Below, in pieces: positions 26,699 through 52,510 of a stretch of 64,000 bases of DNA; position 1 is the first letter of the stretch; every line of letters begins with the position of its first letter. The position numbers were made by a program, and so were the translations under genes. The DNA comes from Psammoneis japonica. Its lineage: Eukaryota. The notes under the pieces were generated by a model. It saw only the letters and a program-made list of their open reading frames with translations, was not told the origin of the DNA and made no database searches. The stretch spans positions 682,001 through 746,000 of the forward strand of contig QPGO01000003.1 of assembly GCA_008632985.1 (NCBI GenBank). Direction: 5' to 3'.

Positions 26699-27244
26699 CA
26701 CTTGCGCAGGCCTTCAGTGGCATGGAATGCAAAGAGACAATCGCATCAACCCTCGCGAACAGCTGCACGACATAAATGTGAACTTCGGTGCGGCCAGATT
26801 CGGCAATTCATCTTTGCATTTGAACTTGCATTTTTTTCTGTGTCGTCCCTTAGAGGTGTGTGCAACAGGAGCATAGAATTCTAGCAGGGAATAAATTCCA
26901 TGGTATTTAGCAATGCTCGTTTTCAGCTGAATGCGCAATAGCTCATGATTCAGAGCAGATCTATTCCTTTGCGACTTATATCAGAACGACGTACTGCGGG
27001 CAATCTCGTCGATCCGAAGGATCACACGATTGCTCCTCGAGCGTCAATCAGCACTTGCCAACTAAAACAGTGTGTGTACAAAAGGGATACCGGTAATAAG
27101 AAAGGCAACAAGAGTTCTTCTACAATTTCTTTAGTCAAAATGTTGAAATCCAAGGTCGGTAGAGCATTTGAACGCTTCCCCGCTTTCTTCAATGATGATA
27201 GGTATGTGGCATCTTTGCACTTCTCTGGTCCTATTCAATCCTCC

Positions 27245-27802
27245 CTATGACATGGCCGTCACTACAATCACTCGAAAAAAGACCAACATCACAAACCCCA
27301 AAGCTATGAAAATGCCACGCTCCTGCTGTTCTCTCGCACTGTACCAGCTGGAATTCACATCATAATTCTCGTCACTGTCGGATACAATTACAGCTTGTGC
27401 AACCTCCACATCAGCAACAGGTACAGACTGACTAAACCCTTTCTTGAAAAGTGCAATCTGTTCTTGAGGGATCCTGCTCAAGTCGTCGTTTGGATGGACG
27501 ATTTCGAGTTGAGGTTCAACACGAACGGTTCTGTCGCCCGAACAATGTGATGGTTTTGGCACGGCATCAGAACTAACAATTTCTACCTCATTGGGCAGAA
27601 GTATGGTGCAATCACTACCAGCATATGGATGTTGAACTTTTCCATTTTGTTCTACCGCATGAGCAACTCCAGCGATCATTTCTGAAATGCTTGGACAACC
27701 CTCTGAAGAATTTTCGTCTTGGTCACGACGGCGGTGGTTCTGGGCTGGTGGTATGGCACCGTAGTTTATCTTGATTGGAGGCTTGTTGGAATGGATCATC
27801 AT
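27245..27802 (-). CDS. Hypothetical protein with C-terminal hydrophobic segment; intact-composition relative of the decayed copy at 38468-38746
   Basis: 185 aa ORF in a normal-composition island with a C-terminal TM-like IFIALGFVMLVFF. A clear paralog lies elsewhere in the window. Confidence 0.55.
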   Translation of the reverse strand: MMIHSNKPPIKINYGAIPPAQNHRRRDQDENSSEGCPSISEMIAGVAHAVEQNGKVQHPYAGSDCTILLPNEVEIVSSDAVPKPSHCSGDRTVRVEPQLEIVHPNDDLSRIPQEQIALFKKGFSQSVPVADVEVAQAVIVSDSDENYDVNSSWYSAREQQERGIFIALGFVMLVFFRVIVVTAMS

Positions 27803-28439
27803 AATGTGTTGTCATTGTTGAGGTTGGTACTAGTAAGAACATTGCAATTCGCATTGTGGATTAGCTTGTGACAGAGGGATTCTTCTCGATTTTACAATTT
27901 TATTCTCGATTCTCGATTCAGCATTTCACATCTATTTAATCGCGATGCTGAGTCATGCTCGTGTAGAAATCTACACAAATGCCTGGTACAGAAATCGCAG
28001 AGCTGATGGTGGTCGCGAAAAGTGCCGGTAGTCGCGGTGACGATGTTGATCGCAACATTTATTGGTGGCGTTTTCATGAGTCGTGTGCGCAAATTTGGCG
28101 ATGAAGCAGTGTAGTGTGTGTTTTGCAAGTTCGAGAAGTGAAGCAGCATGATGTTTTGGAACTGCCTGACAAGCACAATCTGTGTCGAGTGAGACATGCT
28201 GCAGAAGTTGCCTTCACTTGGCAGGGTTGGTTGTGTGACTTAGAGACAATGTTCCAAATGTGGAGAATCTCTGCGCCTCATGCCCACGCATCATGCTGGA
28301 ATGGGGCCATGTGAAAATGACCCTGCCTTGGGTTGCCACTCTGTGAGCTGGGGAGGAACAGTGGTCTCCTGGTGACTGCTGGAGTGTCTGGAGATCAAAT
28401 GAGTGTGGTGCAGTTGTGCATCAGTTTGTTGCTGTTGCC

Positions 28440-28620
28440 ATTGAAGTCATTGCTGCTGCTGCTGCTGCTGCTGGCTGTCGTTGCTGCCGCTTTCTTTGCT
28501 GCTCAGAGCTGGCGCCATTGTCATCGCTGCAATTGTTGTTGCCATTCTTGTTGCCATTGCCGTGGCTGCTGCTGTTTTGTTGTTTTGTGGCTGCCACTGT
28601 CATCATCGTTGCTGTTGTTG
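28440..28620. repeat. Low-complexity GCT/GTT trinucleotide tract
   Basis: A run of GCT units followed by degenerate GTT/GCC/GCT repeats. Confidence 0.6.
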
Positions 28621-29519
28621 TCTCTCATTTCCATCTGCAAAAAAAGCTCCTTGGGGGGTGGCAACATGGCTTTTTTTCTCTTGAAACAGGTGTTGTTCAA
28701 TCAGCACTGGAAATTGATTGAGCAGAGACCCAAGTGTTGCCATTTCAAAAATGACCATGCTGCAAAGCACCTTTGAATTTGTTGCAACATCGTCAACAGT
28801 GTTGTGCAGCTGTGTGCCACCACACTGTGCTTCTTCCATCATGGCAGCCACAGCACGCGAAAACAGGGACTGAAAAAATCTCTGTTTCTTTGTCAAAGCC
28901 AAACACAGAGAGTGTGTGCCTCTTTCCCATCTTCTTGTTTTTTCCAGAAGATTCCAAGTTAGATGACACACCAACGTTGCTTCTTGCAGAAGGAGTGCAA
29001 TGGAGTTTGAATGACCAAAACAGCATGCCATCTGCAAATGCTCAAAAACACTCTCAAACTGAATGTTGTCCAGCAGCAAACTCCCACTGTCAAGCAGCAG
29101 AAGCTTGCCATGCCAAAAATTTTGTCTGCCACCATTTGGACCAAACCATTCTGGCACTGAGGCATTGCAGGATCTCAACTCAGAAACGTTTCAAAGCAAC
29201 AATCATGATCCCAGCCCTCAAATGCATCCACTGGTTTGAGAGCACCTTGTAGACTGACTGTGATGATTCCAAGCTCAGATGCAGTGGTTTTTTAACTGTG
29301 CAATCATGCTCACTCACAGCTGGGGGCATCCATGTTACACTTGGCAACCAAACATTGAAGCACATCCATGGCAATGCACTTCACAGGCATTTGATCAAAA
29401 TCCAAGCATGCAAACCATGGGAGCACTTGCCCAGAGCCATGTTGCACTTTGCAGTGTCAGAAACTCTTACAAAGGTTGCTCCATCAACAGTGTTGGACCA
29501 TCGTTAAATTGCCAAGCCC

Positions 29520-30460
29520 TTTTAGAGTTTGCCACAGAAGCTGAAAGCAGATCTGCCAGATTTGGCCACCCAAAACCAATCACAGAACCCCCCCACCACA
29601 CATTCTGTTGGTTGCAGCATGCTCATTGGGACCAATTTTCCCTCAGCATTAAGTGCAAAATGGTGCCTGAACAACGAACAACAAAATTGATCAAATCTGC
29701 TAGCACAGTTGGCAGGCATCATTCCAGACACCATCAATGGAAACTTTTCTTCAACAGCCTTCTCCAAAGATTTGCCCAAGACATCTGTTCACCCAGAAAG
29801 AATCTTGGCAAAGATGTGTGAGAACCCAATGCTGCCAGCTCTTTTTTTTGTGATCAGATCTCCAAGCAGATTGGCTGTGGTCAGCCAGTCTTCAAGTTTG
29901 CATTTCAACACTGGGCATTGATCTGGCAGTGCATCCCTTGTGCACTCTTTCCACTTTCTGTTTCACAGGTCAGCCTCAAAGCAAACAACTTTTGCACCCA
30001 AAGTTGTTGCGTTTCCATGTTCAGTCACAACTCCATTGATCTGAGACCTTTTGCCTCCATTTTTATGAGCTGAGGCTCTGTTTCAAAGGGACCACACTTG
30101 TGCTTGACACCTTCTTGCTCCATCCACTCTTTTGTCAAGCATGACATCACGCTGGCATTGGGGCCACAGAGATCACAGATTGATGAAGCCGCTGTTTCCC
30201 AGCCGGCTCTTTGGCCTTGGCATGGCTGACAAAGTCCAGCATCCAATCTCAAGCTTTGGCCAATGAGCTTGTGATGCATGGACTGAAGAGATGACAGCAA
30301 CCCAGTCAGTGGACACAGTGGCTGCGACATCGAACACTGACAAGACGCCTTCTTTGCACTTGCTGTGACAGTTTTTGTGAAGCCACATGGACAAATCAAC
30401 CCCAATGACAGTATCCTTGGCAATGCCAAAGGGTGCAGATGGTGTTGTTGACTGCTCCGA
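29520..30460 (-). pseudogene. Decayed Exo1/XPG-family (PIN + H3TH) nuclease
   Basis: TVIGVDLSMWLHK (XPG-N); EGVKHKCGPFETEPQL then INGVVTEHGNATTLGAKVVCF (XPG-I, APYEAD...TEDSD); LLG.DH..RAGSIG (H3TH). Frameshifted. Confidence 0.7.
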
Positions 30461-31071
30461 GTGCTTCCTTCCAAAGGTCTTTGATTCCCATCTGCAAAGT
30501 GCCAAGACCAGTGTGTTTGTGGTGGAGGTGCGATGCTCGAAAGCGAGGTTAGTTGTGGATGCTCCAGAAAAAAATTCCGAGAGTGACGAGCGGCTCTGGC
30601 ATGGTGTGACACTGCTCATTGATGTGTGCGAGTCATCATATATGCTGGTCTACTTTCTATGACTGTACTACTGCAGTTCTGAGACATCAGGACTGCAACA
30701 ATTCTAAATGAGGCAATGCTTCCAACCCATTGTCAAACTCGATTTGAAGGAAGGAACCAACAATGCTGGAGTGATGCTTTTTCTAGAAAATCTTGCCACA
30801 TGCTCGATTGCACAAGGAGCACCACTCTCGACATGGTAGCATTGGAATTGGCACTGCAGTGAAACCATGAATACTGAGCTTCGACAACATCTGTAGAACA
30901 CCGATAAGATCTCTTCGGAGAAGTACGAAAGGGCAGGAGCATCATAGTGGTAAAACTCGGTTTTTGCATTTAGAAAAAAGGCATTATCTTGTTTTGTACC
31001 ATCATGATGTTGCAAACGGTTGAAACGGAGAGGGGTCACAAGCCCACCAGATTAAAATCATTTCGAATCTC

Positions 31072-31527
31072 TTACTCTTCGTCCACGGGAATCTCATCGT
31101 GTACCTATCCACAAAAAGAACAGCAAGGAATGAACCTAAGACAATTATATGACGCAAATTAAAACAAGAGACAGGCTTCATACTCGATATAACTCACCGC
31201 TCGAGCCACGGCACACCACTGGAGAGCTTGCTGCGACGCATCAGCAGAATCATTAATTTTCGTTTCGTTGTGCTCATGATGCCACTCGCGTATGGTTTCA
31301 AACGAATTCAACACTTGTACAGACGTCGAAGACTTGGACTGAATCACGTGTCCTTCTAAATCTTGGTTGGAATTGGAAAGCAACTCTCGGCCTCGAAACT
31401 GGCATGCCAATGTGTCTTGAGAAATGGGTGTCGGTGAAAAATACTGATGAACGGGAGCCATGCCATTGTAGTCGATACTGCACGGGAGTAAGTGACACGT
31501 CGTCGTCTTTTTCGTTGCAGCAGTCAT
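31072..31527 (-). CDS. RNASEH2C: Ribonuclease H2 subunit C, complement(join(31072..31104,31198..31527))
   Basis: CHLLPCSIDYNGMAPVHQYF, FRGREL, F..I.EW.H and WCAVARA|VHDEIP after removing GT-AG intron 31105-31197. Confidence 0.85.
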
Positions 31528-31685
31528 TGTAAGGACACTGAACGGGAAGAGTGTTGTTGTTGTTGCTGCTGTCGTACAACCATCAACAACAAGAAGTGTT
31601 GTTATGGTTAGAAGTGGCCTATGGTACGTCGGACGTCGGCACTTCTGTCAGCTCTCTCACCTCGCACAAAGCGAAAGGGTCTCGC

Positions 31686-31693
31686 GCGCCAAA
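31686..31693 (-). promoter_or_regulatory. Possible E2F-type site TTTGGCGC upstream of RNase H2C
   Basis: Matches the TTTSSCGC consensus about 160 bp upstream of the ATG. The motif is short, so a chance match is possible. Confidence 0.3.
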
Positions 31694-32835
31694 AAAAAAA
31701 GCAAGAGCGAGGGGCATCCGTCCGCCCGGCCGCACGCCCGGCCGGCAAATCGACAAGTGGAGGAGGCAAATGGTGGAGACATCTGGTGGAGACAGGTGCA
31801 GAAGGAGACACCTGAAGACAAGACAAATGGAGATGGAGACAAAACAGATGGGACATGGAGACAAATCAAGCAAAACCAAGAGCACAAAGAGCACATGATC
31901 CACCCAAAACATCATTGAACTGATCCACTCTCTGTTTGGCATTGAATCAAGATGCGCGTGGCTTCAAAAGCAAGAGGATGCTTTTGAAACCCACGCCTGA
32001 TTTTGTCTTGAATGGAGCAGAGAAAAATGGCAAAGCACAGATGGTGCTGACACACAGCAGCAGTTTCAATTCACAGCTTGGTGCTGCTGCACTGCAACAC
32101 ATGATGCCCAAATCCTGTTGCTTTGGCTCCATCTGTCTCTGTCAGAGAGACAAGATTTTTTCCCTTCTGTCTCCATCCATTTTCATCTGTCTCCATTTGT
32201 CTCTGTTTGTCTCCCAACATTTTGTCTCAGCTGAGTGACAAGATGGAGACAAAATGCTTGCATGGTTCAAAAACAGAGAGACAAGTTGCCAAATGAAAAC
32301 TTGCACGCCAAACAATGTGGCGCACATGTTGAGCAGCAACACCACAACAACTGACCCAAATGATTGGACATGAAAACAATCATTTGTTTGTCCTTGACAG
32401 TCATTTCACTGAAAAGTTGTCACTCAATCTTTGTCAGAAGCAAGACAGTTGCCATGTGTCAAGGTGGCAACACAAGGTGCACTCACAAGCAAGCTTGAGG
32501 TGTCATCAACAGTTGACCGAAGGTCTTGGAAGCTTGTGTTCATTCAAGAAAAGAATGGCATCATGCATTCTTGGACTTCCGCAAGAAGTTCAAATGTTCC
32601 AAGCCTTGGCTGGACATTCAGGGTGGTGTCCGCCTTGACAGGTGCCAATGTGTGCATGCTTGCAGCAGCAGATCATGAGCCACTGGGGTTGTTGGTCTCC
32701 ATCAGGTGAGTGGCACATGCATCTGCCAATGCTTCATCTTCTTGTGCTGCTTCCATTGGTGTGAAGCATCACTCAAAGGCAAGTTGCCAAGGTCTCAGAT
32801 GAGATGTCAGCATTTGGGAAGAGTGTTGTGGCTGC

Positions 32836-33145
32836 AATGAGGACTGCTGTTATCCCGACCTCTTCCGAGGTGTGATTGTCCTTGCTGGTGACAAGGGAAC
32901 TGACATTGCCATGTGCACGGGTTCCGCCACTGGTGCCACCTGCAAAAATGGTGTCTGCTCCCGCTTTCCGCCTGTCATGTGGCAGGTTGACCGAAAGTGC
33001 CACCTCATTTCTGCTTCGAGCTTTGAGAACATGTGCTTTGACATGATGTCCCGGGCCGACAACATGAACGATAACCTCTATGCTCACGGATCTCGGGAGC
33101 AATGCTGATAACGTCGCAAACAACCAGCAGCTCCACCGTGCTTAG
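32836..33145 (+). pseudogene. C-terminal fragment of delta-class carbonic anhydrase
   Basis: NEDCCYPDLFRGVIV...GTDIAMCTGSATG...CSRFPPVMWQVDRKCHLISASSFENMCFDM...LYAHGSRE...VANNQQ matches the delta-CA C-terminus as recalled, with Tyr->Cys changes. Confidence 0.85.
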
Positions 33146-33499
33146 ACAAGAGCACTGTGAACTGCTCGTTTTCATGTCAAGAGAACAACAACAAGTATTT
33201 TGATAAATGTTGTTCTCTGTTTACGTTATTCAACAGCGACATGTCTACTTTGTACGCCGTCAAGCCATTCTGCACAATGACATTGACGTGTTTAAGGTTT
33301 TAGATAACTACATTTTTTATACACCGGTAAACAAGAATTATGTGTTGATACGACATGCGTTCCGACTTAATGTCAATGAAGTTCGTTGTCCACATACACG
33401 ACCTCAGACGACCACTCTTTGGATAAAATGTTCGGGTCCAGCGCCATCCTTATCCGACGACTTGTACGCCGCAGAGGCAGCCTTGGCGGCTTCTACTTC

Positions 33500-33845
33500 A
33501 TCGGTTCATTACATGCCCGAGGGGCGCAGCTTTTACCTTTATTCCAGTGATCGGGCCTTCATGTTGCCACCATTCCCTGATGAGCACAACAATCCCACTG
33601 GCGAGCTGTGGCTGCCGCTGGTACCAACAAATGATCTGGTTCTTGGAGTGAATCTCTCCCAGAACAGCACAGTGGAACCGTTCGAATTAGAGATTGGAGA
33701 AATCATAAGTGGCTTTCTTTCTCATCCTTTAACAATGATAGAAACCTTTCGGTCTGGTAGCTGTAACGTTGACGTTTCTTGTTCGGTGGCGGACGAGTGG
33801 AGATAAGAGGTCAGGTCCATGGCAGTCTATGTGTACGGCGGCCCG
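33500..33845 (+). pseudogene. Fragment of lysyl-endopeptidase-like serine protease (pro-region and mature N-terminus)
   Basis: MPEGRSFYLYSSD...NNPTGELWLPLV...LEIGEI..GF...SGSCNVDVSC...EWR*EVRSMAVYVYGG. Internal stop, no catalytic domain. Confidence 0.55.
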
Positions 33846-36522
33846 TCATTGCTGGAATGCATCATATCATCGTCCACACTGGCTACAGACTGCCGAGCCT
33901 GACTGTCCACCCCTGATACCTGTACTCCAGACCGTTCGCCTCGCTTTTTCTGTGGTTTCTCGTGTCCACTTCGTTCGGATTTGTAATAGGCAAGCACTTT
34001 CGGAAGAATAATCAAAGAAAGTGTACTCATCGGGAACGTCCACTGCATGAATGCCAATCCAATGTATCGACCGTCCGACGATACATCACGGAGAACGACC
34101 ACAATGGGGGTGGCAATGAAAACCACCTCGAGCTGCACGGCAATTAAGGAAACGATCCACCAACTCTCCGCATATGAATCATCCACATCTGCTGTCTTCC
34201 AAGCAAATACCGCAGTGAGTATGGCTGGGATTACCATAACGATGAGGAGAGGAGCAATGAATGCGGCGACATGGTCACCATTGCACTCGCCGATACTTTC
34301 TCCAGTCACGTCATTTATTTCCACTCGAGTCCACCGAAGGGGGTCCAAACCATTCCACAGGCTCAATATGACCAAAGCCATTATCATCAAAAGCGCCATT
34401 GGTCCAGCCACGTGACGAATCTCAATTTTCCTTCGAGAAAACTGTAGCACCTTATTCACACGCCATAGCTTGGTAAACAAAGCACTGTAAGTAATAATGT
34501 GGCCAAGAGATATCAGCCAAACGCCAGCCATACCTGAAGTAGCAATAAAAATCATCGTCCAGGTTGAGCTTGCAAGATCGCACATTCGTTTAACGACACA
34601 ATGTCAGCAAATCCTAGTTGCGTTTGAATGCAGCTCTAAATGGAACTTACATGCACTGCCAAGCTGGGATTCGTTCCATCCATAGCTTTCGTCGAAAGAA
34701 ATCGTAAAAATAGCGGCTCCTTGCACCACAGCACCGAAAGCCAATATATAAAGAAACTCTGGTTGCGCTGCTCGAAGTATCCTATGGCTCCTATGAAGGT
34801 ATACCCATACTGAAGCGCACATTGCAAGGAATATCACAATCGCCATGAGAGAAAGACCAAACGCTCTCAGGCCCGAACTCAGGTAGTTTTGCTCTGGTGT
34901 TGTGCGCAGCAAATCAGGTGGAACGTTTCGCCCATCCCGATAAACAAAAGGCATGAGAGATTCCCAGCTGTTTGACCCAGCAATGCACTGATCAGTCAAT
35001 TCGAAAAAGACAGACTGATTCCCATCCGATTGAGGTGGAAGTACGTTGACAGCAGCATAGGACAAAGATTCTGCCACTCTCGATCCCCTTCGTGCTCCTT
35101 GACCTAGAAATTCGACACGACCGCTTGCTCCCGTGAATTTTGACGTGGCAATGCTATTATAGTGGGACTCTCCCTGAACAACACCATTCTCATGTTTAGC
35201 TGCACATGCTCCAAGACCGATACTCATCACAGCATCATAAAGGAAGCTCGAACCAAAATCGGGAAGATACTTCTGGAAAAAGCCATCTTCCGCAAAAACA
35301 TAACCTGGCTCACCCGGAGCCATGGGATTGGCTTTGTTGACTAGGTCAACTAAATCGTTTCCCTGACTTTTCCAAGCAATGGCAAAGGGGTCATTGGCAG
35401 GATCCAGATCGGCTCCTGTATATGGGAAGATCCACGCAGAACCACTCAGAATTTTTCGAACATTGGGGTTGTCACTCATGCTAAGAGATCCATCAAAGTT
35501 TCCAAGCCAGAGCCACATGTGGTCGCCCTTGTTGAGACCCAACTCCTCTGCCGCATCAGCAATGAGGGGTAATTCCGTAAAGGGGTCTTCCATGGCAATC
35601 ACAACCGTTCGGTACCCGCTCTCTTTTATTCTGCCGAGTGCCCCGAGGACAGTCTGATCGTCTTCCACGGATTTGACTCCGTCACTTTTTTGAATATAAG
35701 GAGCCGCCATCCATTTGATTCCAAAGGCTTCTAAAATGATGCCGTACACCTCACGACGCTGACTGCCCAAGTCAGTCAAAGCGTATGCAAAGGCAAGGAA
35801 ATTGTTCCTTCCCTTGTTGATGAGAAATTCAATAGCTTTCATTGTCACCGCAACTACATCAGGATATGTCTGGAGACTGAATGGGTTATACTCATGAGAA
35901 ACAACCCGAAGATTTGTTGCTCGATGCGCCACGAGCGGGAACAACGATGCTTGAGCCATGATGGACAATTCAATGGCAGGCACATCGTTGAACGGTCCGG
36001 CAATGGCGCAAGGTTTTCGTTCTTGCGCCGCCAAGGATCGACTCGCCTCATGGGTGATGGACCCAGAATTAAATACCAAGGATTTGTTCAATCAAAACGG
36101 ATTTCGCAATCCGAAATGTTTGCTAATTCAGGAACAACAGTGCTGTTGCGAGTGTTAAAATGTTCCATAGCCATGAAGGCTGCTGCCATGTGCGAGATCC
36201 CAGATGATGCTGAGAAATCTAAAAGTGGCACTGTAGCAGTCTTACTGTAGATAAGAACGGACAGTACGTGATGAAGAGTGAGCAAAAGGGCAGCATATTC
36301 TGGTAAAAGACCGCAACTACGGACATGTGATCTAACAGCAACCCAAGAGAACCCGCAAGAATCAGCATGAGTTCGTTCTTACTTTATAGTAAACGGCACA
36401 TATATGTACAAAGCACACAGCCCATCAGTGTCAATCAAACCTAGGGCGCAGTGGAGCAGTAGAAACAAGAAGAAAAGAAAACACCACATCTTTCGTGCAC
36501 AAGTCATGATGATCGTCGCCAT
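33827..36522 (-). CDS. Class C (GABA-B-like) GPCR with Venus-flytrap ectodomain and 7TM; introns 36245-36382 and 34534-34650; 1-nt frameshift near 36090
   Basis: Signal peptide; HMAAAFMAMEHFNTRN; FLYDAVMSIGLGAC; FTGASGRVEF; RILRAAQPEFL; LGHIITYSALFTKLWRV; LIILPK. Introns are GT-AG and phase-consistent. Confidence 0.85.
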
Positions 36523-38467
36523 GGTGTGCAGCAAGTGAAAAGTGGAAGTGCAGGAACTGAGAACAAACAATACGGGGTCGTTTTGTATTTCATAAACGGC
36601 ATATTACCTAATGTACGTTATTTTTGAATAAGGAAATTACTCCGATGAGAATGATCCACTCAGTAACGCGAACTTGTTTTTGGAATTTTGACTGGGCTAC
36701 CAGCCTCCACCGTACCACGATGACGTGCAAAGCAAGCGCAATCAACTCATCACCCGTCTCCACTTTGAACCGCTCGCTCTCTCAGCCAGTTCATTGTCCT
36801 TGCAATTGTGAGTTGGCAGAACAGGTGCAAACTGAGTGGGTGGCAGGATGAGATAGATTGACAGCGTTTTGTGGCTCATGCAAAGACGAAAAGCTTGCAA
36901 GAGCCAACTGAGTGATGCTGGGCGGCTGCACACACAAAGGTGAGTTGTTGGGCGGCACTGCTGGCCCAGCTTTGATGCTGCAGCTTGCTTCTGTTGTTCT
37001 TCAACCAAGCTGGCAATTGCAACAATGGCTCTCCTGTGACATGAGGAGCAACAACATGAAGTTGCCATCCCCTCACTCCTCGGGCTGCACCAGCAGCAGC
37101 ATGCCTTCCAACTTTTGTGCAAGCCAGGCGAGATCTCAGCTGTGGCGTCGCTCAAGCTGCTCCCACTGAAACCTTTGATGACATGCTCTTTTTGGCTGGA
37201 CTCATGTTGTGAGTGGAAGGGAGGGCTGCAGCCATTAGAAGGGTTGCAAAGCTGCTGCCAAATGAAGGGCAGGCGCACGCGCCATGTGGCGCAGCTGAGG
37301 CAGCAGCCATTTTGCGCAATGCTGCGCCAGCAGCCACGGCCACAAGTGACCATGCTGCACCTGGCAACATGGTCAGTTAGCAGATGTGTGACATGCATGC
37401 CACACAAAGTGTGGAAGCTGGCAAGAACTTTGTCTTTGCAGCTGGGCAGCCAGAGAGCAGCCTGGAGTCGGAGAGCAGATCGCAGCACGAAAATCACTGC
37501 CTTGCTGTTGCATGGTGGCATGCTCACACTGCTGGGTCAGACTCACTGCATGGAAAAAGCTTGTAAAAGGAACAACAGTTGACAGATGAAGCACAGAAAG
37601 GTCACAGAGCACAGGAAAGCTTGCCAGTTCTGCAAGCAGTGTGGGAAACAGACAGATGAGTGCGGCAGAAGAGTCAATGTCCACCATCCTCATGCTTTTT
37701 GAGCAGCATTTGACACTGACAATGGTCCACCATCAGTGTCATTTCTGCTTGCTCACCATGGCTGTGTTGGGGCCAGCATGCTGCAAAAGGACCAGCTCAT
37801 TTTGAGAAGAGACTGAGGGGGGTTGTCCCCGCATTTGTCCTGGAGCTGCCACGACATTTGAGTGAGGTCATTTGCTGAGTCTGTTTTGAACACAAAATTT
37901 GTTCATGTTCCTTCCACCCAATTGTGCACAAAAATGAGAGCACCATGGGTGTCATGATTGAAGCATGACAATGGTGCAGCCCTCCATTGACATTTCTCCA
38001 AATCACAGAGGGGCATCTGCAAACTGCTTTTGATGCAGATCGGACCTTTGGCGCACAAGGAACACAAAACAAATGAGAATTGACAGATGGACCACATCTG
38101 CCACAGACTCACAACTTGGTGTTTTGGTGACAGTGAAGCATGGTGAAGCTTGGGAAAAGCCGCGCAAATGTTGAGCTGCTGTTTGGCCAAATTTGAGTCA
38201 AAAAAAGAGTGGCAAATGACCCCCCTTTTAAGGAAATTAGGTGCCAGAGAGTCATGCACAGGATGTGCGGCAGAGATTGGTGGGAAGCAGAGAGGTGAAG
38301 GGGTGGAGGGAAAAAAGGGGCACCTGAGGTGTGGACATGCAGATGGGGGGGGGGGGGGGGGATGAACTGGGGTTGCATGACTCCTGAAAATGCCACCAAC
38401 AAATGTTGTGATCAGCACTGCTTCTTGCAACTGCCATCAGAAGACAGCTCTGCAATTTTTTCAGTGG

Positions 38468-38746
38468 CATGCTGGCAGTGATTGCACCATGCTCCTGCCC
38501 AATGAGGCAGAAATTCTTGGCTCTGATGCTGTGCTGTCGCCAACACATTGTTTGGGCAATGGAGCCATTCATGTTGAAGCTCAACTCAAAATTGTCCAAA
38601 CCAACCAAAACGGTGACTTGAGCAGGAGCCCTCAAGAACAGATTGCACTTTTCAAAAAAGGATTTGGGCAATCTGCACCTGCTGCTGATGTGGAGGTTGC
38701 ACAAGCTGCACTTGCATCTGTCAGTGATGACAATTGTTGTGATGTG
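38468..38746 (+). pseudogene. Hypermutated paralog fragment of the gene at 27245-27802
   Basis: Codon-by-codon alignment to the reverse complement of 27356-27625: AGSDCT.LLPNE.EI..SDAV...PQEQIALFKKGF.QS.P.ADVEVAQA. Confidence 0.9.
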
Positions 38747-39749
38747 AGACTGGCAGTGGGCACAGGTGTAAAAAAAAACAGCATGAGCATGGCATTTTAC
38801 AGCATTGTGGATGAGTGTCCATCCATGGAAGCAAGATGCTCATCAAGAACAAGTCATGTGATCACTCATGTGGTGCCAGCACACTGGTCTCTCTAGAAAA
38901 AGGAAAAAGAAATGTGCGCCAAACTCTGCAGCTGGCTTGGCAGCTCTTCTTTGCTTGTGCCTGTGACCAGCTCCTTTGGGCATCTTTTGCTGCACATCCT
39001 GATTGTCACAAAAATGTTGATCAAACCAGGAGGTGTTGTGCATCTTAAAGTGAGCACACATGGAGTTGATGTGCCAAGCCTGTTGCAAGAGGAGAGAACA
39101 AGAAAGTGCAGGAAGTGAGCATTGTTGGGCCAAGATGTGACAAATTGTGATGCATCATTTGTCAGTGCACTGTTCTTTCTGCATTTCAGCTTGTCAGCAG
39201 CTGCACCACCTTTGGGGTCTCTCTGCCAGCTTTTGGGAAACCTGGACATCAAATCTCACATGGCCTGGGGGGCACAAAGCCAGGAAAAGTGTTGGGAAGG
39301 AGCACTGCCAAGGAGTTCTTTCTCAATCATGGCAGCAGCAGTGGGGCAACAAATCAGTGTTTCAGGGTCATGTGGTGGTTTCTCCATTTGAGACTTGTGT
39401 GGTGGTGCTGCAGCAGTGCTGCACAAAAAATGACCCCTCACTGCCACACTCTGCATGAGGACTCCAGCTCTGCAAGAGATCAGAGGGCCAGCCACTTTCC
39501 CATGCATGGCAACAGCCTTGCACAAATCAAAACTCTCAACAAGATGCCAAAAAAGAAGGATGGAAGAAAAGAAGGAAAACAAGAAAAGCAAAGAAGAAGC
39601 AGAAGCCTGTGTGCCAGAAAATGCACAACCGCTGATCCTCTCTGTGCCACCTGCAGACTTCTCTGGCACACTTGTGTGCACTTTCTCAGCACAGTGGTTT
39701 CCTCTTTGTGCAACGATGCTCAGCTGGGTGCTCGAATTTTTCAAAGCAA

Positions 39750-41400
39750 AATGAGATTTTGGGCATTTTTGCAGTGGTCCTGGTCATGGTTGCAGATGAG
39801 AATGCAGGCAGTCTCTCACAGTGCACCTGCAGTGAGAGGTGGCATCAGGTGGGCAGATGGTGTGGTGCTGTTAAGGACATGGTGGCCATCTGGCCATGGC
39901 ACTGCACTGCATCATGCCAGTGAGCACACGGCTGTTCATCTTTCATGTTTGCACAAAATGTGAAATGTTGCTGTTTGGCGCAACAATGCAAAGTTTGCAA
40001 CCATGATGAAATGAGTCTTTTTTGTTGAGCGTGTGCTCCAGCAACCCAGCTCATGAACCACACCACCAGTGCCTGCTGGATCACTCAGGAAACATGGGAT
40101 CCAGTCATTTGTGCAGCACACACATCAACACATTGACTGCTGCAAAAAAAAAAAGCCAAACAAAAACTTTTGAACATGTTGATGCACCCTGTTTGAAGAA
40201 CTTTTTTGAAAATGTTCAATGCTGATCCAGTGTCTGAAGCACATGGCATGACACCAATGGACCTGATGCATGTGCTTGATGAGGGGTTGTGAAGAAGATG
40301 CTTGAGGTGTTTTGTGGTCATCTGGGTCAGAACAGAAGTGCTGATCTTGACCACATTTTTCAGCTGACAGTCAACACAAAGGTGTGGGCAGATTTGTCCA
40401 GCCACCCTTGGGCTGAGTTCTCTGCCAGTGTCACCAGCCTCCATTGCCTGCAAGCTGCAGAGCATGTCAGAGTCCTGTTTTGCACTTGTGTTCTTCTTTG
40501 AATGGGAGTTAGAAAGAGGCAATTTATGGATCTGCTTGAGAATTGCCACATGAAATTGGCACGCACTGCAGCCACTTGAGAGACAACTCCTGTTCCACCC
40601 ATGAGATGTCATCAAACCACATGGATCAACCATGACAATGCCAAGACACGTGCCATTGACAACTGGTCAAAACTTTTGGAAACATTGCTTTGCTTCCATG
40701 CTTGGGCAAAGAGACCCCTGCTGGGTTTTGGAGTGCAGCTGACATCAAAGAAAGAGCAGCTGCAAGGCAAAGGCAGCTGTGTCATTGGTGCAATGACAAA
40801 GGGCATTCTGGGAATGTCTCCAAAAAGTGGGACAAAGAGGAAGAGCAGCAAGTTGAGTGTGCATTGGAATGGATGGGATCTACAAAAGACAGGATGATGC
40901 CTGAAGCACTTGCTGAGAATTGTTTTGTGGTTCCCTGAAATGACACTGGAGCAAGAACCACAAGTGCTTTGCAAAAGACCTGGGCCTGCAGGCATGGAAT
41001 TGACACTCCTTGTTTCTTTTTCAAGCCATGAAAAACCTGCACAGGAAAGTGTTTGTAGAAACACCAAGGTTGGATTTTGGTCTGTCTTCCAGGCAAACCA
41101 AAAACAAAAGGAGAATGAGGATGGTGGTGGCACTGAGCTCCAAACAACTTTCATGCCTCCTGTCCACATGGTCAGTGCCACAGGAGAGGCTGAGATGTGG
41201 GCACATGCACTGCAGCAGTGGTTCTTGAAAATGCAAGGCCTGGAGCTTCTGCCCACGGCTGCAAGCCATTTGTGCTGTTTCATCCAAATGATGCACTCTC
41301 CCCATGCATCCTCCATTCTCTGTGCCACAGAGGCGCACACAGAAGGTGCAGGTTGAACAAGGGCTCACCCAAGTTGCCAGCCCAGGAAACCTGTGTGCAG
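39750..41400 (+). mobile_element. Decayed Plavaka/CACTA-related transposase
   Basis: KNFFENV..ADPVSEAHGMTPMDLMHVLDEG, LLETLLCFHAW and WNGWDLQK resemble Plavaka-type transposase motifs as recalled. Limits are approximate. Confidence 0.5.
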
Positions 41401-44400
41401 TTGGGTCAAGTTTGTGCAGGTGCGTTGCCGCTGGCAACATTGCATTGCAGCAATGGCTGTTTGTTTTGTGCTTCAAACAGGAGGAGAACAACTCAACCTG
41501 CCATGGGCATTGGTCCACTGGTGCAATCATCTTCTGACTGGCAAGCCCAGCTGGCTTGAGCCCTCCCTGTTGGAACAATGTGCAAAGGCACACCCAGGAC
41601 AAGGCCATTGTTTGACCTCACTGAGCTGACACAGACAAAAACAAAGATGTGCCAGTGTTTGAGGACAACCCAATTTTGAAGGAGATGGAGCCATGGTGGA
41701 ACATGGTGACAAGAGAGAAGGTGGGACAGCCAGGCTGCAAATTGTTGGAGCAGGATGCACCAACTTTGCATGAGGAAGTCAAGCCAAGATTGTGCACATG
41801 ACACAAAAAGATGAGTGTGACAAAGAGGCTGAACATGTCTGTTGGAGAGCCACTCTGCACAGTTGTGGCAGGTGCCACATGATTCACCTGGGGTGCTGTT
41901 GAAAGAATGCAGGTTTGCAGCTGCACTTGTGGGGTTGTTTGTTCATTTAGCATGGGAAAACCCAATGGAAAAATGAGAGCTGCATGGATCACCCCTCTGA
42001 CAAAGTCACAAAGAACCAAGCTTGTGGGGATGGGAAAAATTTCCTGATGTGATCAGCCCCTTTCCATCCCCAAGCTGGGATGGCATGGCCACTCCAGCAC
42101 CACCAACATGTGCTGCAATGTGAGCTTGCCAGCACATTTGGGGGGGGGGGGGACAGGGTGGGCCCAGATGGAGAGCTGTGGCCAAGGCTGCATGGCCAAG
42201 GTTTGGTGGCAGTGAACAGCACTTCAATGCTGGGATGAAAGACAAAGTTGCAGAGCCAGCAAGTGTGCAGCTGGCAAAGTTGTGCACAGCTGGCTCCACC
42301 TGCCCAAGAGCTGGTCATCAGTGCCCACATGGGCACACAACAGCACCATGGCCCCAACTGTTTGGGGGGGCAACGAGTGCACAAATGTCTGACTTGGCAT
42401 GTGAGAGCTCAAGCAGGGCACAGATTGGATGAAGCCACACCAGTCCATTCTCCCAGGCACAAAGAGGAACAAGAAAGCCAGCACAGTCATGCAATGGCTT
42501 GCGTTCCTGGGTTGGTGCTTGCAAATGTGGCATGGATGATCCATGCCAAAGGACAGCAAGGTTCCAGAACCCCTGGGGTGAAAGATCAAAGCTCTCCTGG
42601 AAGCTTTTGTAAATTGGCAGTCTTGTGCAAGGAAAGTCCTGAATCAGCTTGTCCAAAGGTGTCCACGTTGATGTGGCATGAGGCAAATGGTCATGGAAAT
42701 GGCATCAATGATCCGCCCCAGTTCTTCTTTTCTGTGTGGTCCAAGTCACGTCCTCTTGTCTGAGCTTCTCAACACTCATGTGTTCTTTTGCGGGTGATGT
42801 GATCTTGGGAATTGAGTGGTTGGAAGACGTTGTTGATCACGAGGTGGAGAAAATGTTGTGTTCTGCAATTCGTGACGCATGCCGAAAGAAGCTTTCAAAC
42901 CCTCTAAGGGCACATTTGTGCTCGTCAAATTCAGGAATCCTACAAATGACGATGGTTTTTTCTGCTGTGGTGGCGATGGCACCTTCCTGCACTCAGGAGT
43001 CACTCTCGAAATTGCCGGAGAAAAGTGCTTTCCCATTCCTGCCAGCCCCAGCATCCAACCCCTGACACGCATTCATCCAGGTGCATCCTGCACATTCTTT
43101 TGGCAGTTGTCCATTGGTGCTCCGACCCTCCGACAAAAACTTCCAGCTCATTTGCACAAGATTTGCTTTGAAACCCCCAAAAGACTGGAACCCAGGCATG
43201 CTGTCATTGTCATTTGTCAGCATCCTTTTGTCACATTTTCGGGTTTGTTCCAAACTGAACGTCAGTGAGGGCACTGTTTTTGCTCACAACACAGGGATTC
43301 TTACGACCAGTGTGCCGATCGGGGACATGGGATCTGCTGGTTCTCTGCCTCCATGGATTTGCCAGGTGTCCTTGATGGAATGCAAAAGCACTGTGGCGCT
43401 CTGTCCACTTCTTTGGACATTGCAAGCAAAGGGGCGTGCATCGAAGAACCCCTTGCAATTGTTTCCAGACAGTGTCAGCCCGCGCCAGAAGTCCATGTCT
43501 AGCCAAGCCCACTTTGGTCCCATTTCCAATTGCTGCTTCACACAAAAGTAGTTCATCTCCATCAATCCGTCTCACTCTGTGACATCGGATCTCTGCTGAG
43601 TGTGTGAATGCCTTCACCCAGCTTTGTGACAAATTGACGTCCCCAGAGGGCAAGCGCATTCATCCCAATGTCATTTGGGGGCTGACGGTTGTGAGAAACC
43701 AAGTGACGAAGATTGACAATGACTCCAGCCCCTGAAGCTGCAATCAAAGGACCCAAGGCAGTGTTTGCTGCAGTGGTGGCATGCGCCATTGCCAATCCCC
43801 CCTGGAAAGATGTCAACCCCGCAATGACGTGTGGCGATGCCGTGGTGCCATGGTTCACTGCGATTGCTGTCACAATGGCAGCGGCCAAGAGAGACGGAGT
43901 CATTGGCATGGTGCCCCCAAGGAATGCTGGCAAGGCCGCAATGGCAAGTGTGCCAAGATGCGTGTGAAGAGTGTTCAACGAGACATTGTGGGCACACGGC
44001 AGTTTGCACCGCAGAGATAGAAACAGCAACAGCAGACAACTTGGGAGGTGTAAATTGACCAGTTGCTAAATTGTGAGAACAAAACTGCTCCACTCGACAA
44101 CCAACGAGAATTTGTAAAGAACAACAAGTGACCCGCATTTGCACCAGACTCAACACAGATGAATGTGGTGTAAAGACTTGTCAGGAACAAGAAGTTCTTG
44201 ATTGCACAAAAGAAGAACAGAAGTGAGGCTCGATTCTCGATTTGAACCCCAGACCTCCGATCTCATTTGTTTCTCGATCTGTGATTGGGTGAGTCGCTGG
44301 TGGTGGTTGATGGCAGTTTCTGAGCGGTCATTGTCACACGCGGGACTTGATGGTGTGCTGATGCATGAATGTGTGTGTTCTCACAGACATCATGATGGTC

Positions 44401-46029
44401 CATGACAATCACCAGGTCCAGATCCAGAAGCATGGATTCTTTGGAGAGACTGGTGACAATCTTGGATTTTTCAGTGCTGCGAAGCTTGGACCAGACCCCA
44501 TCAAAGGAATCCTCTCCAGGGCTTGAAGGCGGGGAACACAAATCCAGACATTTCAACTCTGGAACACCTGCAGATCTGCTGAGTTTGACATCTTGTGGTT
44601 GGGGCAGTGTCGGCAATGGGAGGAGGATCAAGCAAAGACACAAACGGCAATGGGGTCGTGAAGGACAGTGCGCTTCAGTGCCCGTTGCTCTTTGCTTTCG
44701 ACACATGACTTTGAGCTTTCAATTTCTCCAAGAACACAGAACACAAAACGCAAATTGACACAAAAGCCATTCTTGCTGCCCCTCCATGCACTTGCCGTGG
44801 CAGGGACGGATGCAAGTGCAAAATGCCGCATGCATGCATGGAAATTGTCGCACACAGACAGACTGCCACTTCGATTTTCCTTGCAAGTGGCAACATCCAT
44901 GTTGTTCATGTTGGGTGTGTTTTCTCATTGGAGCAATTTCCTTGATCAAAAAGAAGTGTGTTTGGGTTTGATGTGTCCACCCAACTCATGCGGCAGCCAC
45001 TTCCTGCAGGAAAAGCTGCTGGAGGTTGGTTGGTGGCAGGTGGTGTGCAGCCAAAGAAATGGCCAAGAGCCTCTCCACTCAAATGAACCATGCACCTGCA
45101 GTGTTGACCACTGCTGAGGCCCTCAGAAGCTCAGTGAGTGCTCTGCTCTAGAAACGTGCATCAGAGACCTGCAGAAGGGGCCATGAATCACAGGTTGTCA
45201 AACCCCGCCATCTCATGGCACGTGCATGCACGCAAACATTCATTGACCCCCCTCCAGATTGAAATCAACATTCACTTGTTGGGAGTGCAACATTTTTATT
45301 TATTTTCACCATCCTGATTGGTGCACATTTTTGGGCTTGTTGCTCCCAGACGTGTGTGATTTAATGTGCACTCATTGACTTGAGTGCCAAATGCTTGTGT
45401 TTCTTTCCAACTGAAAAATGTTCATTTTCACATTGCATGTGGTGTTTTTGCCAAAAGCACTGCATTTCCGTCCTCATGATGAATGTCAGTCATTCAGCAA
45501 AATTTTCACCTTTTTCTGTTTCTCCTTCAAAGCCCATCCTCGCCGTTGTCTCACAACTGTTCCGTTTGCAACATTTGTCTGACCAATTGTGCACAGGGCA
45601 TTTGTCCCTTCCACTTGTGATCTGCAGATCCAATCCCCTGTGTTTTTGGTGAATCAGTGCAGAACCACAAAAGCAGTGTGACGAGGAGTCTGCAGGATTC
45701 CACGTCCACTGTTTTTGTCATGATTGCGCATGGCGGTTTGCCTCTTCCGCCTTTGCAATCATGCCGACAACAATGTGCAATGTACAAAGAAACAAAAAAT
45801 GTCAAGACATCAATTGTCAACTGTTGTTGCTCAAAACCACAGCCCACTTGACATGATTCTTCAGGACTTGTCCATTTGGATTTTGACTTGCTGATGGCGA
45901 TCCAATGTTTTGACGTGTGTTTGCAAATGATGCTGCAAAGCACATCTCAATTTTGCAAGTTGGTGGACAACCACCATGTTGTTGATTGTGCATGGTGTTT
46001 GGTGTTGAGCAGCTGAACAAGTGTCACAA

Positions 46030-46400
46030 AGATGTGGCTGCATTGTTGTGAACTCCATCTCTCTCAAGGTCAGAGAAGAGTTGTTCAAGGAACAAGCAAC
46101 ACAGTTGAAGAAGCATGGTGCTGCAGTGGCAGTTGTGGTGTTTGACAAACAAGGACAAACTGCAGCCAAGGAGGACAAGGTTTGTGTGTGCAAACACTTG
46201 CACAACATTCTTGAAGTGGGTTGCCCTCCAGAAGATGTTGTGTTTGATCCCAGTGTGTTTGATGATTGGCACCAGCATGGAGGAACATGCAAACTGTGGA
46301 GTGGACTTCATCAACACAACAAAGACCATCAAGGAACAGCATCTGCATGCAAAGGTTGGTGATGGCATTTCAAACCTTTCATTTGGATTCCAAGGAGGCA
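46030..46400 (+). pseudogene. METH: Fragment of cobalamin-dependent methionine synthase (pterin-binding domain)
   Basis: CIVVNSISLKVREELFKEQATQLKKHGAAVAVVVFDKQGQ...PPEDVVFDP, then IGTSMEEHANCGVDFINTTKTIKEQ..HAKVGDGISNLSFGF. Confidence 0.9.
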
Positions 46401-49400
46401 AGCTTTTTTGGTGGATGTCATGTTGCAGGTTCTGCATGAAGCAATGTGGGGGGGCATGGGGTGCACCATGTGGTTTGTTTTGGAAAAGGCAAGAAGAACT
46501 GCAATGTGCACAAATCATCCTCTCTTGTGTTGCCAACACACTGATGCACATTCCTCTTGTTCAAAATGCAATCTGTCTCATTGATGCTTTCTTTGGAATG
46601 GGTCAAATGTGGATTGCGTTGTGCGGTGTGTCCGGGCACTCTAGCCAAGATTGGTTTGCAGAAGCTGGATTGGCATCCATGGGGATGGACTCCAATGATG
46701 TCTCAGCCAGTGCTTCAATCATGCTCACCCTGCACTGGTGTGCTCATCATTGCAGACACAGGTGAGTTGCATCCTTCACCAAAGACATTTGGAGATTTGC
46801 AGCCCAAAAGTGTGCTCTCTTTGGTTTCTGACTGGCATGGAGTTTTGTTTCTAATCTCAGTTTTCATTCCATTGCAGTTCATTTCCCATCACAGTCAGCA
46901 TCTTTGTGCCAGAAATGGACAAGCAGCAGTGCAGCAAATGACAAGCTGTGCACAGGTTTGATCCTCAAATTGCTTTGCATTTGATTTCAACATCACTTTG
47001 CCTCACAAAAAACAGAGTGAGGGGTTTGTCCCATGGAAATGTCACAGCAGTTGGCAGGGAACTTGTCAACACATTCATGATGTTGCAACAAAGAATTGCT
47101 GTCATGCAAGTGGCACCACCTCCTTTTCCATCACCAGGGCAGGCAAAATTTGATGAGTTGGTTGTGCAGAAACAAAACCGCAAGTTGTTTGAGCTGCTCA
47201 CAAATGCTCATGGCACAGCTTAGAAGAAAATGAATCAGCAATGATGCCTGCAAGCATGGCTTTCTTACAAGCATTGCAAAGCTCTTTGTGGAGAAGCAAC
47301 CCAACAAGTCACAACAAGAATTTGAAGCCAGGCTCAACTGTTTTGAGAAACCTCATGTCAAGCAATGTCAAGTTTGATGCAAGGAGAAACTTTTTTTGAA
47401 GACTGGAACAACAGGCAGCTGTGCGGAGAGCAAGAGACAGCATTTTTTGCAAGCCCTTCAAGTGCCACACGAGAATGCAACCAAATTGCTCCAATGAAAA
47501 CAGCCTGTTCTGGGGAAGCATGCAAAGTGCAATCAATGACAGCATTGAGATTGCACTTGCATCTTTGCAATTGATTCCAAACAATCACCATGATTTGATG
47601 CATCCAAGGTTCCAACACTGCATTGGATGCAACGGCGCACTGCTTCTTCTTTTTTGTGAAAAGCACAGACAAGATCATTGACCCCAGCATGGGCAGGAGT
47701 GCAGTCATGGAACTGTCACCGGTTCTCAGAGGCACTGGTTCTGTCTGAGGGCCATGCACAAGGTGGTGGCACAATGATGTTTAGATTGAACCAGCTCCTC
47801 ATGGGAAATGGCATGAAAGCCTCCCTTCCCAGGCTTTCAAATGATCATGATGCAAAAGCTGCAGCAGACTCCTTTGATGCACTGGCAAATTTTGTGTGTG
47901 GAGATGAAATGATGGAGTCACAGCACACACGTGCAATTGTGGCTTTTGAAACAATGGTTGGAAATGCAAGCTCAACTCAGGAGCAATCACGGTGTCTCAA
48001 AAGTTTTTGTTTGGTGCGTTGTCATTGAGTCAGGACAAAATCAATGAAACTGCTGCTGCCTGTTACAAGGTTGTTGCTGGGGTTGACACGATTGTCACAC
48101 AGGAAGCTGCCATGAGAAAAATGGTTTCCAGCAAAGCTCTTTCTCAGTCTGATGAAATTCTTGCCTTGGAGGTGCATCGAAACATTGCTGCAAGAAAACA
48201 TGCAAGACTGTCCATTGAAAGCAAGCATCAACCTTCAAAATCCTGCCACCCAAAAGTGGTGAGCAACACAAGGAAAAGCTTTGATCCAATGAATTTCTGC
48301 TTCTTGCAAAATCTTTGTAACAGGGCAAGCAACTGCCCGCAAAATTGACAGGCTGCACCGGAGTTGTCACACAGTGCAATCAGCTCCAACCAAACTTCCT
48401 GCACAAGTGAAAAGGTTGGTGGACCAGGTGCCTTGTCCAAGGGATCAGAGTTGGTGGTGGTGGGAGGGATCATGATGGGTGGATCTGGGGGCAAGGTGGA
48501 TTCTTCAGAAGCCTCATCCAGAGGAGAGGAAAAAGAAGCACCAAGAGTGCCAGGGAACATTTCACAAGAAAAAGAGTCATTGTCACATTTGTTGCTGTCC
48601 TCCTCCTCTTCCTCCTCTGCTTCTTCATTGCGGGTGGGGTGGGCTCCAAGTCTTCTTTGGGTGGGAAACTGGGTGGGTCATCATCTCCATTGAAATCTGT
48701 GCTGGGATTTGCTGACTTGTCTTTCTCAGAGGCAGCAATGGATGGCTGACAAGCATTTTGCTGTTCTTGGAAAACAAAAATGGCAGCTTGCAACAACTGG
48801 CTCAATTGAGTTGTGGCAGATGCACTGGGACAGGCTGCATTTTGCCTGATGCTACATTGGCAGCAACAATGGCAAGGAAGCATGCCAAACAAAGCATCCA
48901 GTTGGAAAAGGAAGGCTGTGGAAGTGGGATGAAACAATTTGATGCTTGCTCACAACCATTTGTTGGCAAGCAGATGTCTGACATTTTTGAATCAAACCAT
49001 TGAGTGGAGACTCAGTTCATTTTTGAATGAGACTCAATTGGCATGCTGGCAACAGCCGTTAGAGAGTTGGCCACAAAGAGACATTTCACATCATGTCACA
49101 CACACATGCAGACATTGATGCACAGATTGGATTGCATGGAGGATCCATTTAAATTCCAATGTAGATGTGCAGCCAAATAAAAAAATGTGGGGAGGAAATG
49201 CCCTTTTCAGGCAAGCAAAAAAACACAAAGAAGGGAAAAAGACAACTGTCACATGCACATGATCTGCCAGACTCAACCGCATCCATCACCTTGCTCACTT
49301 CAGTGCACTTCAGCACACACCAGAAAAATCACTGCAGCAGCAGTGGAGGATGATGGTCATCATGGAGTGGCAAATGAGCTGCACCAAATGGATGGCGGAT

Positions 49401-52340: not shown

Positions 52341-52510
52341 GGGTGATGCCGATCTTGGCTAATTGACACATGCTCCTGCCACACCTGGTGTGCTGGGAGT
52401 GTGGGTTAGCTTGTTGCCGGAGTTGCAGGGTGGAAGCACAGCAGCACTTAAAAATTGGACTTTGGGTTTTGTTTTGGACTCAGCAACTGCACTCAACATT
52501 TTGCACTTTA

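Follow-up and report, generated by a model that had tools for sequence, protein, structure and literature searches.

Loss of TpA and CpG between gene islands in a 64 kb window of the Psammoneis japonica nuclear genome

In E. coli, very-short-patch (Vsr) repair imposes a T:G mismatch-repair bias, tied to cytosine methylation, that depletes CTAG and leaves an excess of CCAG/CTGG. Adenosine deaminases of the ADAR and ADAT/TadA types prefer a 5'-U/T and have RNA as their natural substrate, and hydroxymethyl-uracil is found at TpA in dinoflagellate DNA. Deamination of 5-methylcytosine is among the fastest spontaneous routes of mutation; in vertebrates, methyl-CpG decay turns bulk CG into TG or CA while gene-associated islands keep CpG. 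A diatom methylome showed methylation at 84% of the CpGs in transposable elements (TEs) and at 24.9% of those in genes (PMC11842555, available portion of the text). Repeat-induced point mutation (RIP) of filamentous fungi consists of C>T transitions, chiefly at CpA, and depends on a sexual stage and a cytosine methyltransferase of the RID/DIM-2 type. RIP turns CpA into TpA, enriching A+T (PMC2621366), and acts on both copies of a repeat (PMC2621366, PMC3318451), according to the available portions of these papers. The full-text literature searched yielded no description of a joint conversion of TpA and CpG to CpA/TpG in a genome compartment, and no counterpart of the TpA half of such a conversion. 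Here, we describe a window (the whole 64 kb stretch of DNA that was analysed; all coordinates refer to it) in which both dinucleotides have been lost from the DNA between the genes.

The window is eukaryotic nuclear DNA, as indicated by contigs of run X2 that skip GT..AG-ended stretches within ORF-bearing regions. Its base composition is bimodal, with gene islands of normal composition set in a TA/CG-depleted remainder, which we call the sea. The seven islands (1–5500, 15500–16000, 20500–21300, 24500–28100, 30500–31750, 33000–36750 and 56500–58650) total 17,556 bp and have observed/expected ratios (o/e) of 0.54 for TA, 0.93 for CG and 1.24 for CA/TG. In the sea (46,444 bp), the corresponding values are 0.05 for TA, 0.20 for CG, 1.87 for CA and 1.79 for TG. 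The G+C content is nearly equal (0.474 in the sea and 0.468 in the islands) and the base frequencies are nearly identical. TA and CG together reach a density of 8.9% in the islands. The stop trinucleotides TAA and TAG are about sixfold rarer in the sea (0.15% and 0.13% of trinucleotides) than in the islands (0.97% and 0.73%), and this near-absence fills the sea with long spurious ORFs that will mislead gene finders; ORFs of at least 160 codons without a Pfam family are common there. One sea block runs continuously for ~20 kb (36750–56500), with per-kilobase o/e values of 0.03–0.09 for TA and 0.06–0.48 for CG. All recognisably non-genic DNA of the window is depleted in TA and CG.

Recognisable genes in the ~17.6 kb of islands encode a histidine-kinase ATPase domain, an H2A-like histone, an amine oxidase, RNase H2 subunit C, a family-3 GPCR with an ANF-receptor domain and a protein kinase. 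The two-exon amine oxidase gene (Amino_oxidase, E = 7e-22, Pfam) lies in the island at 24500–28100, and its intron (25233–25371, with GT..AG ends) is skipped by a spliced X2 contig. The intron and spacers of this island have a TA o/e of 0.55–0.93. Across the islands, introns and spacers are normal in both dinucleotides (TA o/e 0.55–1.18, CG o/e 0.87–1.43), so selection on coding sequence is not the cause of the difference. None of the runs listed is recorded as RNA; X2 behaves like cDNA, with four GT..AG-ended joints that skip 139, 93, 117 and 138 bases. Those of its pieces that are listed map to islands, as do the bins in which it has depth, apart from one bin of low depth that begins at 24001; the stretches 27336–30670 and 36674–44000, which take in most of the 188-codon ORF described below and its sea copy, are without X2 cover and were not counted as evidence. 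The ORF at 4287–5075 (minus strand, 263 codons) has an unusual histone layout: the H2A core and H2A C-terminus fall within its first 160 residues, behind a hydrophobic, leader-like stretch, and ~100 further residues come after them.

Pfam was scanned with the 45 ORFs of at least 160 codons in the whole window and then with 150 + 67 sea ORFs of 80–159 codons. The ~46.4 kb of sea gave three matches among ~250 ORFs of at least 80 codons; the scan works by ORF, so that relics split into ORFs of fewer than 80 codons fall outside it. Scanning for tRNAs and for Rfam families gave no matches in the window. Self-BLAST of the window gave eight repeat pairs in 64 kb, one of which joins an island to the sea.

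The island member of this pair belongs to an orphan ORF of 188 codons (27245–27811, minus strand) that shares its island with the amine oxidase gene and ends in a hydrophobic stretch. The first-pass annotation had treated it as an intact gene; its length in DNA of normal composition suggests a putative gene. Local alignment matches its segment 27296–27624 (minus strand; 11 TA, 13 CG) to a decayed paralogous fragment of ~340 bp in the 20 kb sea block, at 38469–38810 on the plus strand (BLASTN, 78% over 343 columns, E = 6e-73). The first-pass annotation had paired 27356–27625 with 38468–38746 by eye, and reported that all ten TA dinucleotides and nine unambiguously aligned CGs had become CA or TG, with most other positions conserved. 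A global alignment of these ranges (270 columns) bears this out. All ten TAs are changed (six to CA and four to TG), and each of the contexts given is recovered: TAT>CAT, GGTAGT>GGCAGT, ATA>ATG, TAT>TGT, two instances of TTAG>TTGG and four of GTA>GCA, the latter in GGTAGA, TGTACC, TGTAAT and TGTATC. Ten of 11 CGs are changed (six to TG and four to CA), that at 27488 being kept, and 225 of the 270 columns are identical; the sea copy has no TA and two CGs in this range.

Over the full homology (328 columns, 268 identical), all 11 TAs are changed (seven to CA and four to TG), as are 11 of the 13 CGs, again to TG or CA, and 36 of the remaining 280 sites differ. The island's CA and TG dinucleotides are mostly kept (21 of 25 and 28 of 31, respectively). 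Chance is ruled out by the rates, since ~95% of the TA and CG sites changed, all by single transitions to CA or TG, compared with ~13% per site elsewhere. In the sea copy, the three codon positions carry similar numbers of differences (6, 7 and 7 at TA/CG sites; 7, 7 and 11 at the other sites), and the reading frame is kept for ~262 columns and then lost; the fragment thus evolves as a pseudogene. This is the only homology between island and sea in the window; tblastn of 16 island ORFs against the window gave this pair as the sole match other than to self. Loss of TA and CG is expected for any sequence in the 20 kb block, as the block is nearly devoid of both; what the pair adds is the identity of their products.

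Relatives of the 188-codon ORF were sought widely. It has no Pfam family, and neither 5.8 billion proteins, searched by word index, nor a metagenome DNA scan yielded a relative. HMMER gave two matches at E ≤ 0.001 among 1.84 billion representatives, a tandem-repeat protein and a WD40 protein, which were rejected as orthologs because both are long repetitive proteins with 26–29% identity to tandem units or to WD40. For relatives of the amine oxidase next to it, a search for the surrounding DNA found none.

Some features of the surroundings of the sea copy may be recorded here. A 226 bp piece of a repeat family ~360 bp from it (37884–38109) is 70% identical to 12104–12317, which adjoins the LTR-like repeat described below. 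One contig from the DNA run X1 connects 38205 straight to 38470, which is exactly where the decayed copy has its left end. The bin 38008–38674 has a summed X1 depth of 152, compared with ~50–65 in most other bins. The fragment may be part of a unit with further copies elsewhere in the genome. At ~110 bp upstream from the copy is a homopolymer of 17 G (38345–38361), at which X1 contigs terminate in loose G runs.

The pair had also been taken to polarise the change. The direction itself stands, on three other tests within the window, and the part played by the pair is weak. In a reverse model, with a sea-like ancestor, TA and CG gained by the island copy and rates set by the pair's own background, 70% of new TAs and 75% of new CGs are expected to arise by transition. 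All ten new TAs would then arise by transition with P = 0.03 and ten of ten CGs with P = 0.06, and the reverse direction has a joint P of about 0.002 from the pair alone. The direction from TA and CG to CA and TG is settled by a metH relic, a reverse transcriptase (RT) relic and a pair of direct repeats.

The metH relic (cobalamin-dependent methionine synthase, pterin-binding region; 46036–46396, plus strand) lies in the same sea block as the decayed copy and comprises 122 codons with one frameshift near 46250–46255. It contains no TA and no CG in 361 bp. The ORF part at 46009–46359 matches Pterin_bind in Pfam (E = 1.3e-5) and the relic matches human methionine synthase (4ccz; E = 1e-12). With eight intact MetH proteins as queries, tblastn finds 122 residues in two frames (46036–46254 and 46250–46396); the best source-named matches are diatom proteins (61–66% identity). 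Sixteen intact MetH proteins served as the outgroup, and 91 positions are the same in 15 or more of them. Of these residues, 65 persist in the relic and 26 are replaced; for 21 of the 26, changes of the types TA>CA/TG or CG>TG/CA alone suffice to derive the replacement from a codon of the invariant residue. All three invariant tyrosines are replaced (by His, Cys and His), as are all three invariant arginines (by Cys, His and Gln). Further replacements of this type are Val(GTA)>Ala, Met>Val after T, Ala(GCG)>Val, Ser(TCG)>Leu, Thr(ACG)>Met and Pro(CCG)>Leu and, after C, Glu>Lys, Asp>Asn and Gly>Ser/Arg; the other five (L>Q, A>T, F>C, C>H and G>D) do not come down to a simple change at TA or CG. 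A matched control, in which the procedure was unchanged and the neighbouring base was swapped to any other, explained 0–1 replacements in the T>C/A>G half, compared with nine for TA, and 0–1 in the C>T/G>A half, compared with 12 for CG. The outgroup comparison that had been proposed for the pair thus gives the expected direction in a sequence that is undoubtedly not a TE, 7.5 kb from the sea copy. The claim that copies of non-TE genes are mutated as well is supported, with the metH relic as a stronger case than the pair, which involves an orphan fragment of a putative gene.

The RT relic (14267–15008, minus strand) is a Ty3/gypsy-type reverse transcriptase with RNase H (RT_RNaseH_2, E = 4e-13; RVT_1, E = 3e-6) that lies in the sea. 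It matches the Ty3 RT (4ol8; E = 1e-5) and aligns with Ty3 and foamy-virus RTs. Its YxDD motif (14901–14915) reads C-I-D-D, with the codon TGC in place of the catalytic tyrosine, and it reads H-P-G (CAT CCA GGC) where the Ty3 and foamy-virus RTs carry F-L-G; its ORF contains no TA and six CGs. Two direct repeats of ~1.65 kb on the plus strand (12348–14007 and 16404–18055) flank the relic in an LTR-like arrangement (77% over 1687 columns by self-BLAST; 80% identical over 1625 columns when aligned). At 76 dinucleotides, one copy has CA and the other TG; the remaining types of adjacent double transition number 2–11 each. Such CA:TG discordances arise when an ancestral TA or CG is resolved independently in each copy. 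When doubled, they give ~150 ancestral TA/CG sites in 1625 columns, near the island density; the duplication hence carried normal DNA, and both copies decayed later, in place. Within the retroelement remains, the mini-island at 15500–16000 partly retains TA and CG; it contains a hairpin (15890–15921) with a 13 bp perfect inverted repeat around GCCGG.

Loss of TA and loss of CG differ in their boundaries and contexts. Across the island edges (mean of nine), TA falls from 12.6 to 1.2 and then to 0.3 per 250 bp, and CG runs through 11.4, 9.7, 4.3, 4.2, 2.9 and 2.1 per 250 bp, a taper over ~1 kb outside the edge. The loss of TA is abrupt and is already complete where CG still tapers (for example, at 28100–29000 and 58650–59500), and at 43–45 kb a TA o/e of 0.05–0.07 is found with a CG o/e of 0.48. 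Retention of TA, expressed as the fraction of the island level for each pair of flanking bases, spans 60-fold; the values rest on equilibrium counts of 173 residual TAs, and the multiplicative flank effect and the relative rates are rough. It is lowest for ATAT (0.007), ATAC/GTAT (0.008), ATAG/CTAT (0.017) and GTAC (0.02), intermediate for ATAA/TTAT (0.07), CTAC/GTAG (0.08) and GTAA/TTAC (0.13), and highest for CTAG (0.20), CTAA/TTAG (0.31) and TTAA (0.42). RTAY is thus lost most, to near-extinction, and YTAR least, and the residual TAs of the sea are mostly in YTAR words (TTAA, TTAG/CTAA and CTAG). Retention of CG varies only threefold (0.15–0.44) and is highest with GC-rich flanks, as expected for deamination of 5-methylcytosine. 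We read the two losses as two co-located processes, given their separate boundaries, the TA-poor blocks in which CG is kept and their unequal dependence on flanking bases.

The X1 data support the assembled sequence. This run holds 91% of the sampled 31-mers of the window, and its contigs cover 30 of 30 bins of 24001–44000 at 35–152×, in sea and island alike, and reproduce the TA/CG-free sequence; a 4856-base contig over 24516–29371, for example, has four differences. Of 102 X1 contigs, 67 match the window at less than 99% identity and 46 at only 90–95%, which points to related copies elsewhere and to members of repeat families in the sea. Differences between the window and X1, which comes from the same sample, are more frequent in the sea (nine over 1042 bases; 16 over 2107, plus indels) than in islands (none in 2315 and none in 2377 bases). 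Among the 40 of 132 differences listed, most are transitions in the sea. They include changes at residual TA (TA>CA at 38798 and 41948, TA>TG at 40511) and residual CG (CG>CA at 38918 and 41257), four CA<->TG doubles (28854-5, 37946-7, 39414-5 and 40313-4) and, inside an island, TA>CA at 36074. Such differences may be signs of a recent process; alternatively, they may be alleles or assembly errors.

The pattern resembles RIP in that context-specific transitions wreck non-genic or duplicated DNA, in that dinucleotide-skewed blocks lie beside normal gene regions and in that the changes are read out by aligning a mutated with an intact copy. In contrast to RIP, TpA is lost here, the changes fall at TpA and CpG with CA and TG largely kept, half of the changes are A:T>G:C, A+T enrichment is absent, and the island copy is untouched. 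Where both members of a duplicate lie in the sea, both are mutated; in the island/sea pair, which shares ~330 bp, the island member is unmutated. This sparing had been set against RIP. The sparing holds, and extends to the introns and spacers of the islands, but as a contrast with RIP it is weak, as the shared segment is ~330 bp long and 18% diverged and RIP in Neurospora needs longer and closer repeats.

Methyl-CpG decay provides a likeness for one half of the pattern. As around vertebrate CpG islands, the change of CG to TG or CA is confined to non-island DNA (o/e 0.20 versus 0.93; 10 of 11 sites in the pair; 12 metH replacements), depends weakly on flanking bases and tapers at the island edges, so that the CG decay looks like ordinary methyl-CpG decay. 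Such decay accounts for the CG half only; TpA is the more depleted dinucleotide (0.05 versus 0.20) and has a sharper boundary and an RTAY preference of its own. Vsr repair is similar in driving T:A>C:G at a TA-containing word, but is specific to CTWGG-like words, whereas here CTAG is well retained and RTAY is lost most. The chemistries of ADAR, ADAT/TadA and hydroxymethyl-uracil would yield A>G or T>C at TpA; the deaminases, however, act on RNA in nature. ADAR-edited retrocopies were considered as a source and rejected, because the conversion affects both strands of contiguous blocks, non-TE DNA included. GC-biased gene conversion was rejected as well, half of the changes being S>W.

A homology-triggered, RIP-like defence that leaked into unique neighbours and so gave rise to isochore-like blocks, and from which the island copy escaped because its segment is short and diverged, is unlikely in our judgement but is a live rival. 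It would suit the TE relics in the sea, the mutation of both members of sea duplicates, the related copies elsewhere implied by the X1 contigs below 99% identity and the contig that joins 38205 to 38470, as if the sea copy lay within a repeated unit. Its target would nevertheless have to be the opposite of that of RIP, as the product here, CpA/TpG, is what RIP removes, and G+C is unchanged. Conversion is uniform over blocks of ~20 kb with single-copy depth, in a window with only eight repeat pairs, the edges of conversion coincide with gene islands, and the metH and island-ORF fragments are converted but the island copy is not. It is quite improbable that the sea represents a neutral mutational equilibrium of the whole genome, from which the islands are held back by selection or by repair coupled to active chromatin or transcription. 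The depletion of every recognisably non-genic stretch of the window and the TA>CA difference at 36074, within an island, fit such an equilibrium, but the normal TA and CG content of island introns and intergenic spacers argues against coding selection and the step at the edges takes place within 250 bp. In its repair-coupled version, this explanation is indistinguishable, by sequence alone, from the one that we favour.

It is very improbable that the island copy is the derived one, having gained TA and CG from sea-like DNA. The protein and metagenome searches supplied no outgroup for the ORF and, seen from the sea copy, transitions at CA/TG run at only about twice the background rate. Against this, 20 of 20 changed sites are single transitions (the joint P of about 0.002 given above), placing all of the background divergence on the island lineage predicts 7.0 new TAs compared with the ten seen, and the direction is the opposite in outgroup-polarised relics at distances of 7.5 and 24 kb. 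We give almost no credence to a sequencing or assembly artefact, such as modified bases miscalled as CA/TG. The denser X1-versus-window differences in the sea, with their CA<->TG swaps, are what such an artefact might leave; yet X1 holds 91% of the sampled 31-mers and its contigs give the TA/CG-free sequence at normal depth, the amino-acid replacements and frameshift of the relics fit real, old mutations, and paralogous copies have resolved identical sites differently.

Taking together the observed substitution pattern, its direction, the independence of the copies, the regional limits and the context preference, we consider that the window is probably a mosaic of gene islands in a sea where in-place, region-limited processes erase TpA and CpG by transitions. 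TpA becomes CpA or TpG (a T:A to C:G change) and CpG becomes TpG or CpA (a C:G to T:A change). In this mosaic, the processes hit whatever DNA sits in the sea, be it retrotransposon remains, the fragment of the housekeeping gene metH or the ~340 bp fragment of the island ORF, and stop sharply at the island edges, so that the homologous sequence within an island retains TA and CG. A link to silencing or methylation, like all of the enzymology, is something that we infer. The sea may be silenced, CpG-methylated DNA that loses CG by ordinary methyl-CpG deamination. A separate and stronger T:A>C:G process would act at TpA, with a preference for RTAY, faster than the decay of CpG. In its likeliest chemistry, an enzyme would deaminate (A>I, read as G) or modify the adenine, or the thymine would be modified, in silent chromatin; other candidates would be a mispairing modified adenine or thymine at TpA, or biased mismatch repair. 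An enzymatic process seems to us more likely than a spontaneous one, because TpA appears to be lost faster than by deamination of 5-methylcytosine. A>G on one strand and T>C on the other are indistinguishable from sequence alone.

The first island contains a two-exon gene (2672–3903, plus strand; intron 3194–3264), the second exon of which carries the amino-methyltransferase motifs EPSCGHG and GGPPY. NCBIfam matches it to the Alw26I/Eco31I/Esp3I adenine-specific DNA methyltransferases (E = 8e-8; 31.5 bits against a cut-off of 353), its atlas neighbours are N6_Mtase/Eco57I clusters (score 0.92), and the PDB match, M.BseCI, is not significant (E = 0.89). TpA is lost in this genome, and the gene is a lead for a candidate DNA adenine methylase.

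A more far-reaching reading, which we offer tentatively and as a possibility only, is that this alga runs a DNA mutator across whole chromatin domains, converting T:A to C:G at TpA (best at RTAY), alongside methyl-CpG decay. If so, adenine or thymine would be deaminated or modified by an enzyme in silent DNA, a genome defence that runs opposite to RIP, and tyrosine codons, TAA and TAG stops and TA-requiring transposon target sites would be erased outside the islands; we know of no organism with a TpA-directed genome-defence chemistry of this sort. A TpA process that is real and enzymatic would constitute a second, chemically distinct route of mutational silencing beside RIP and methyl-CpG decay, and a natural A:T>G:C editing of DNA. 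Decayed genes and TEs in the sea evade homology searches. The density of TA and CG would provide a map, at base-pair resolution, of long-term active versus silent chromatin, and the island/sea pair, the relics and the repeat pairs are a ready means of measuring the spectrum and rate of the process genome-wide.
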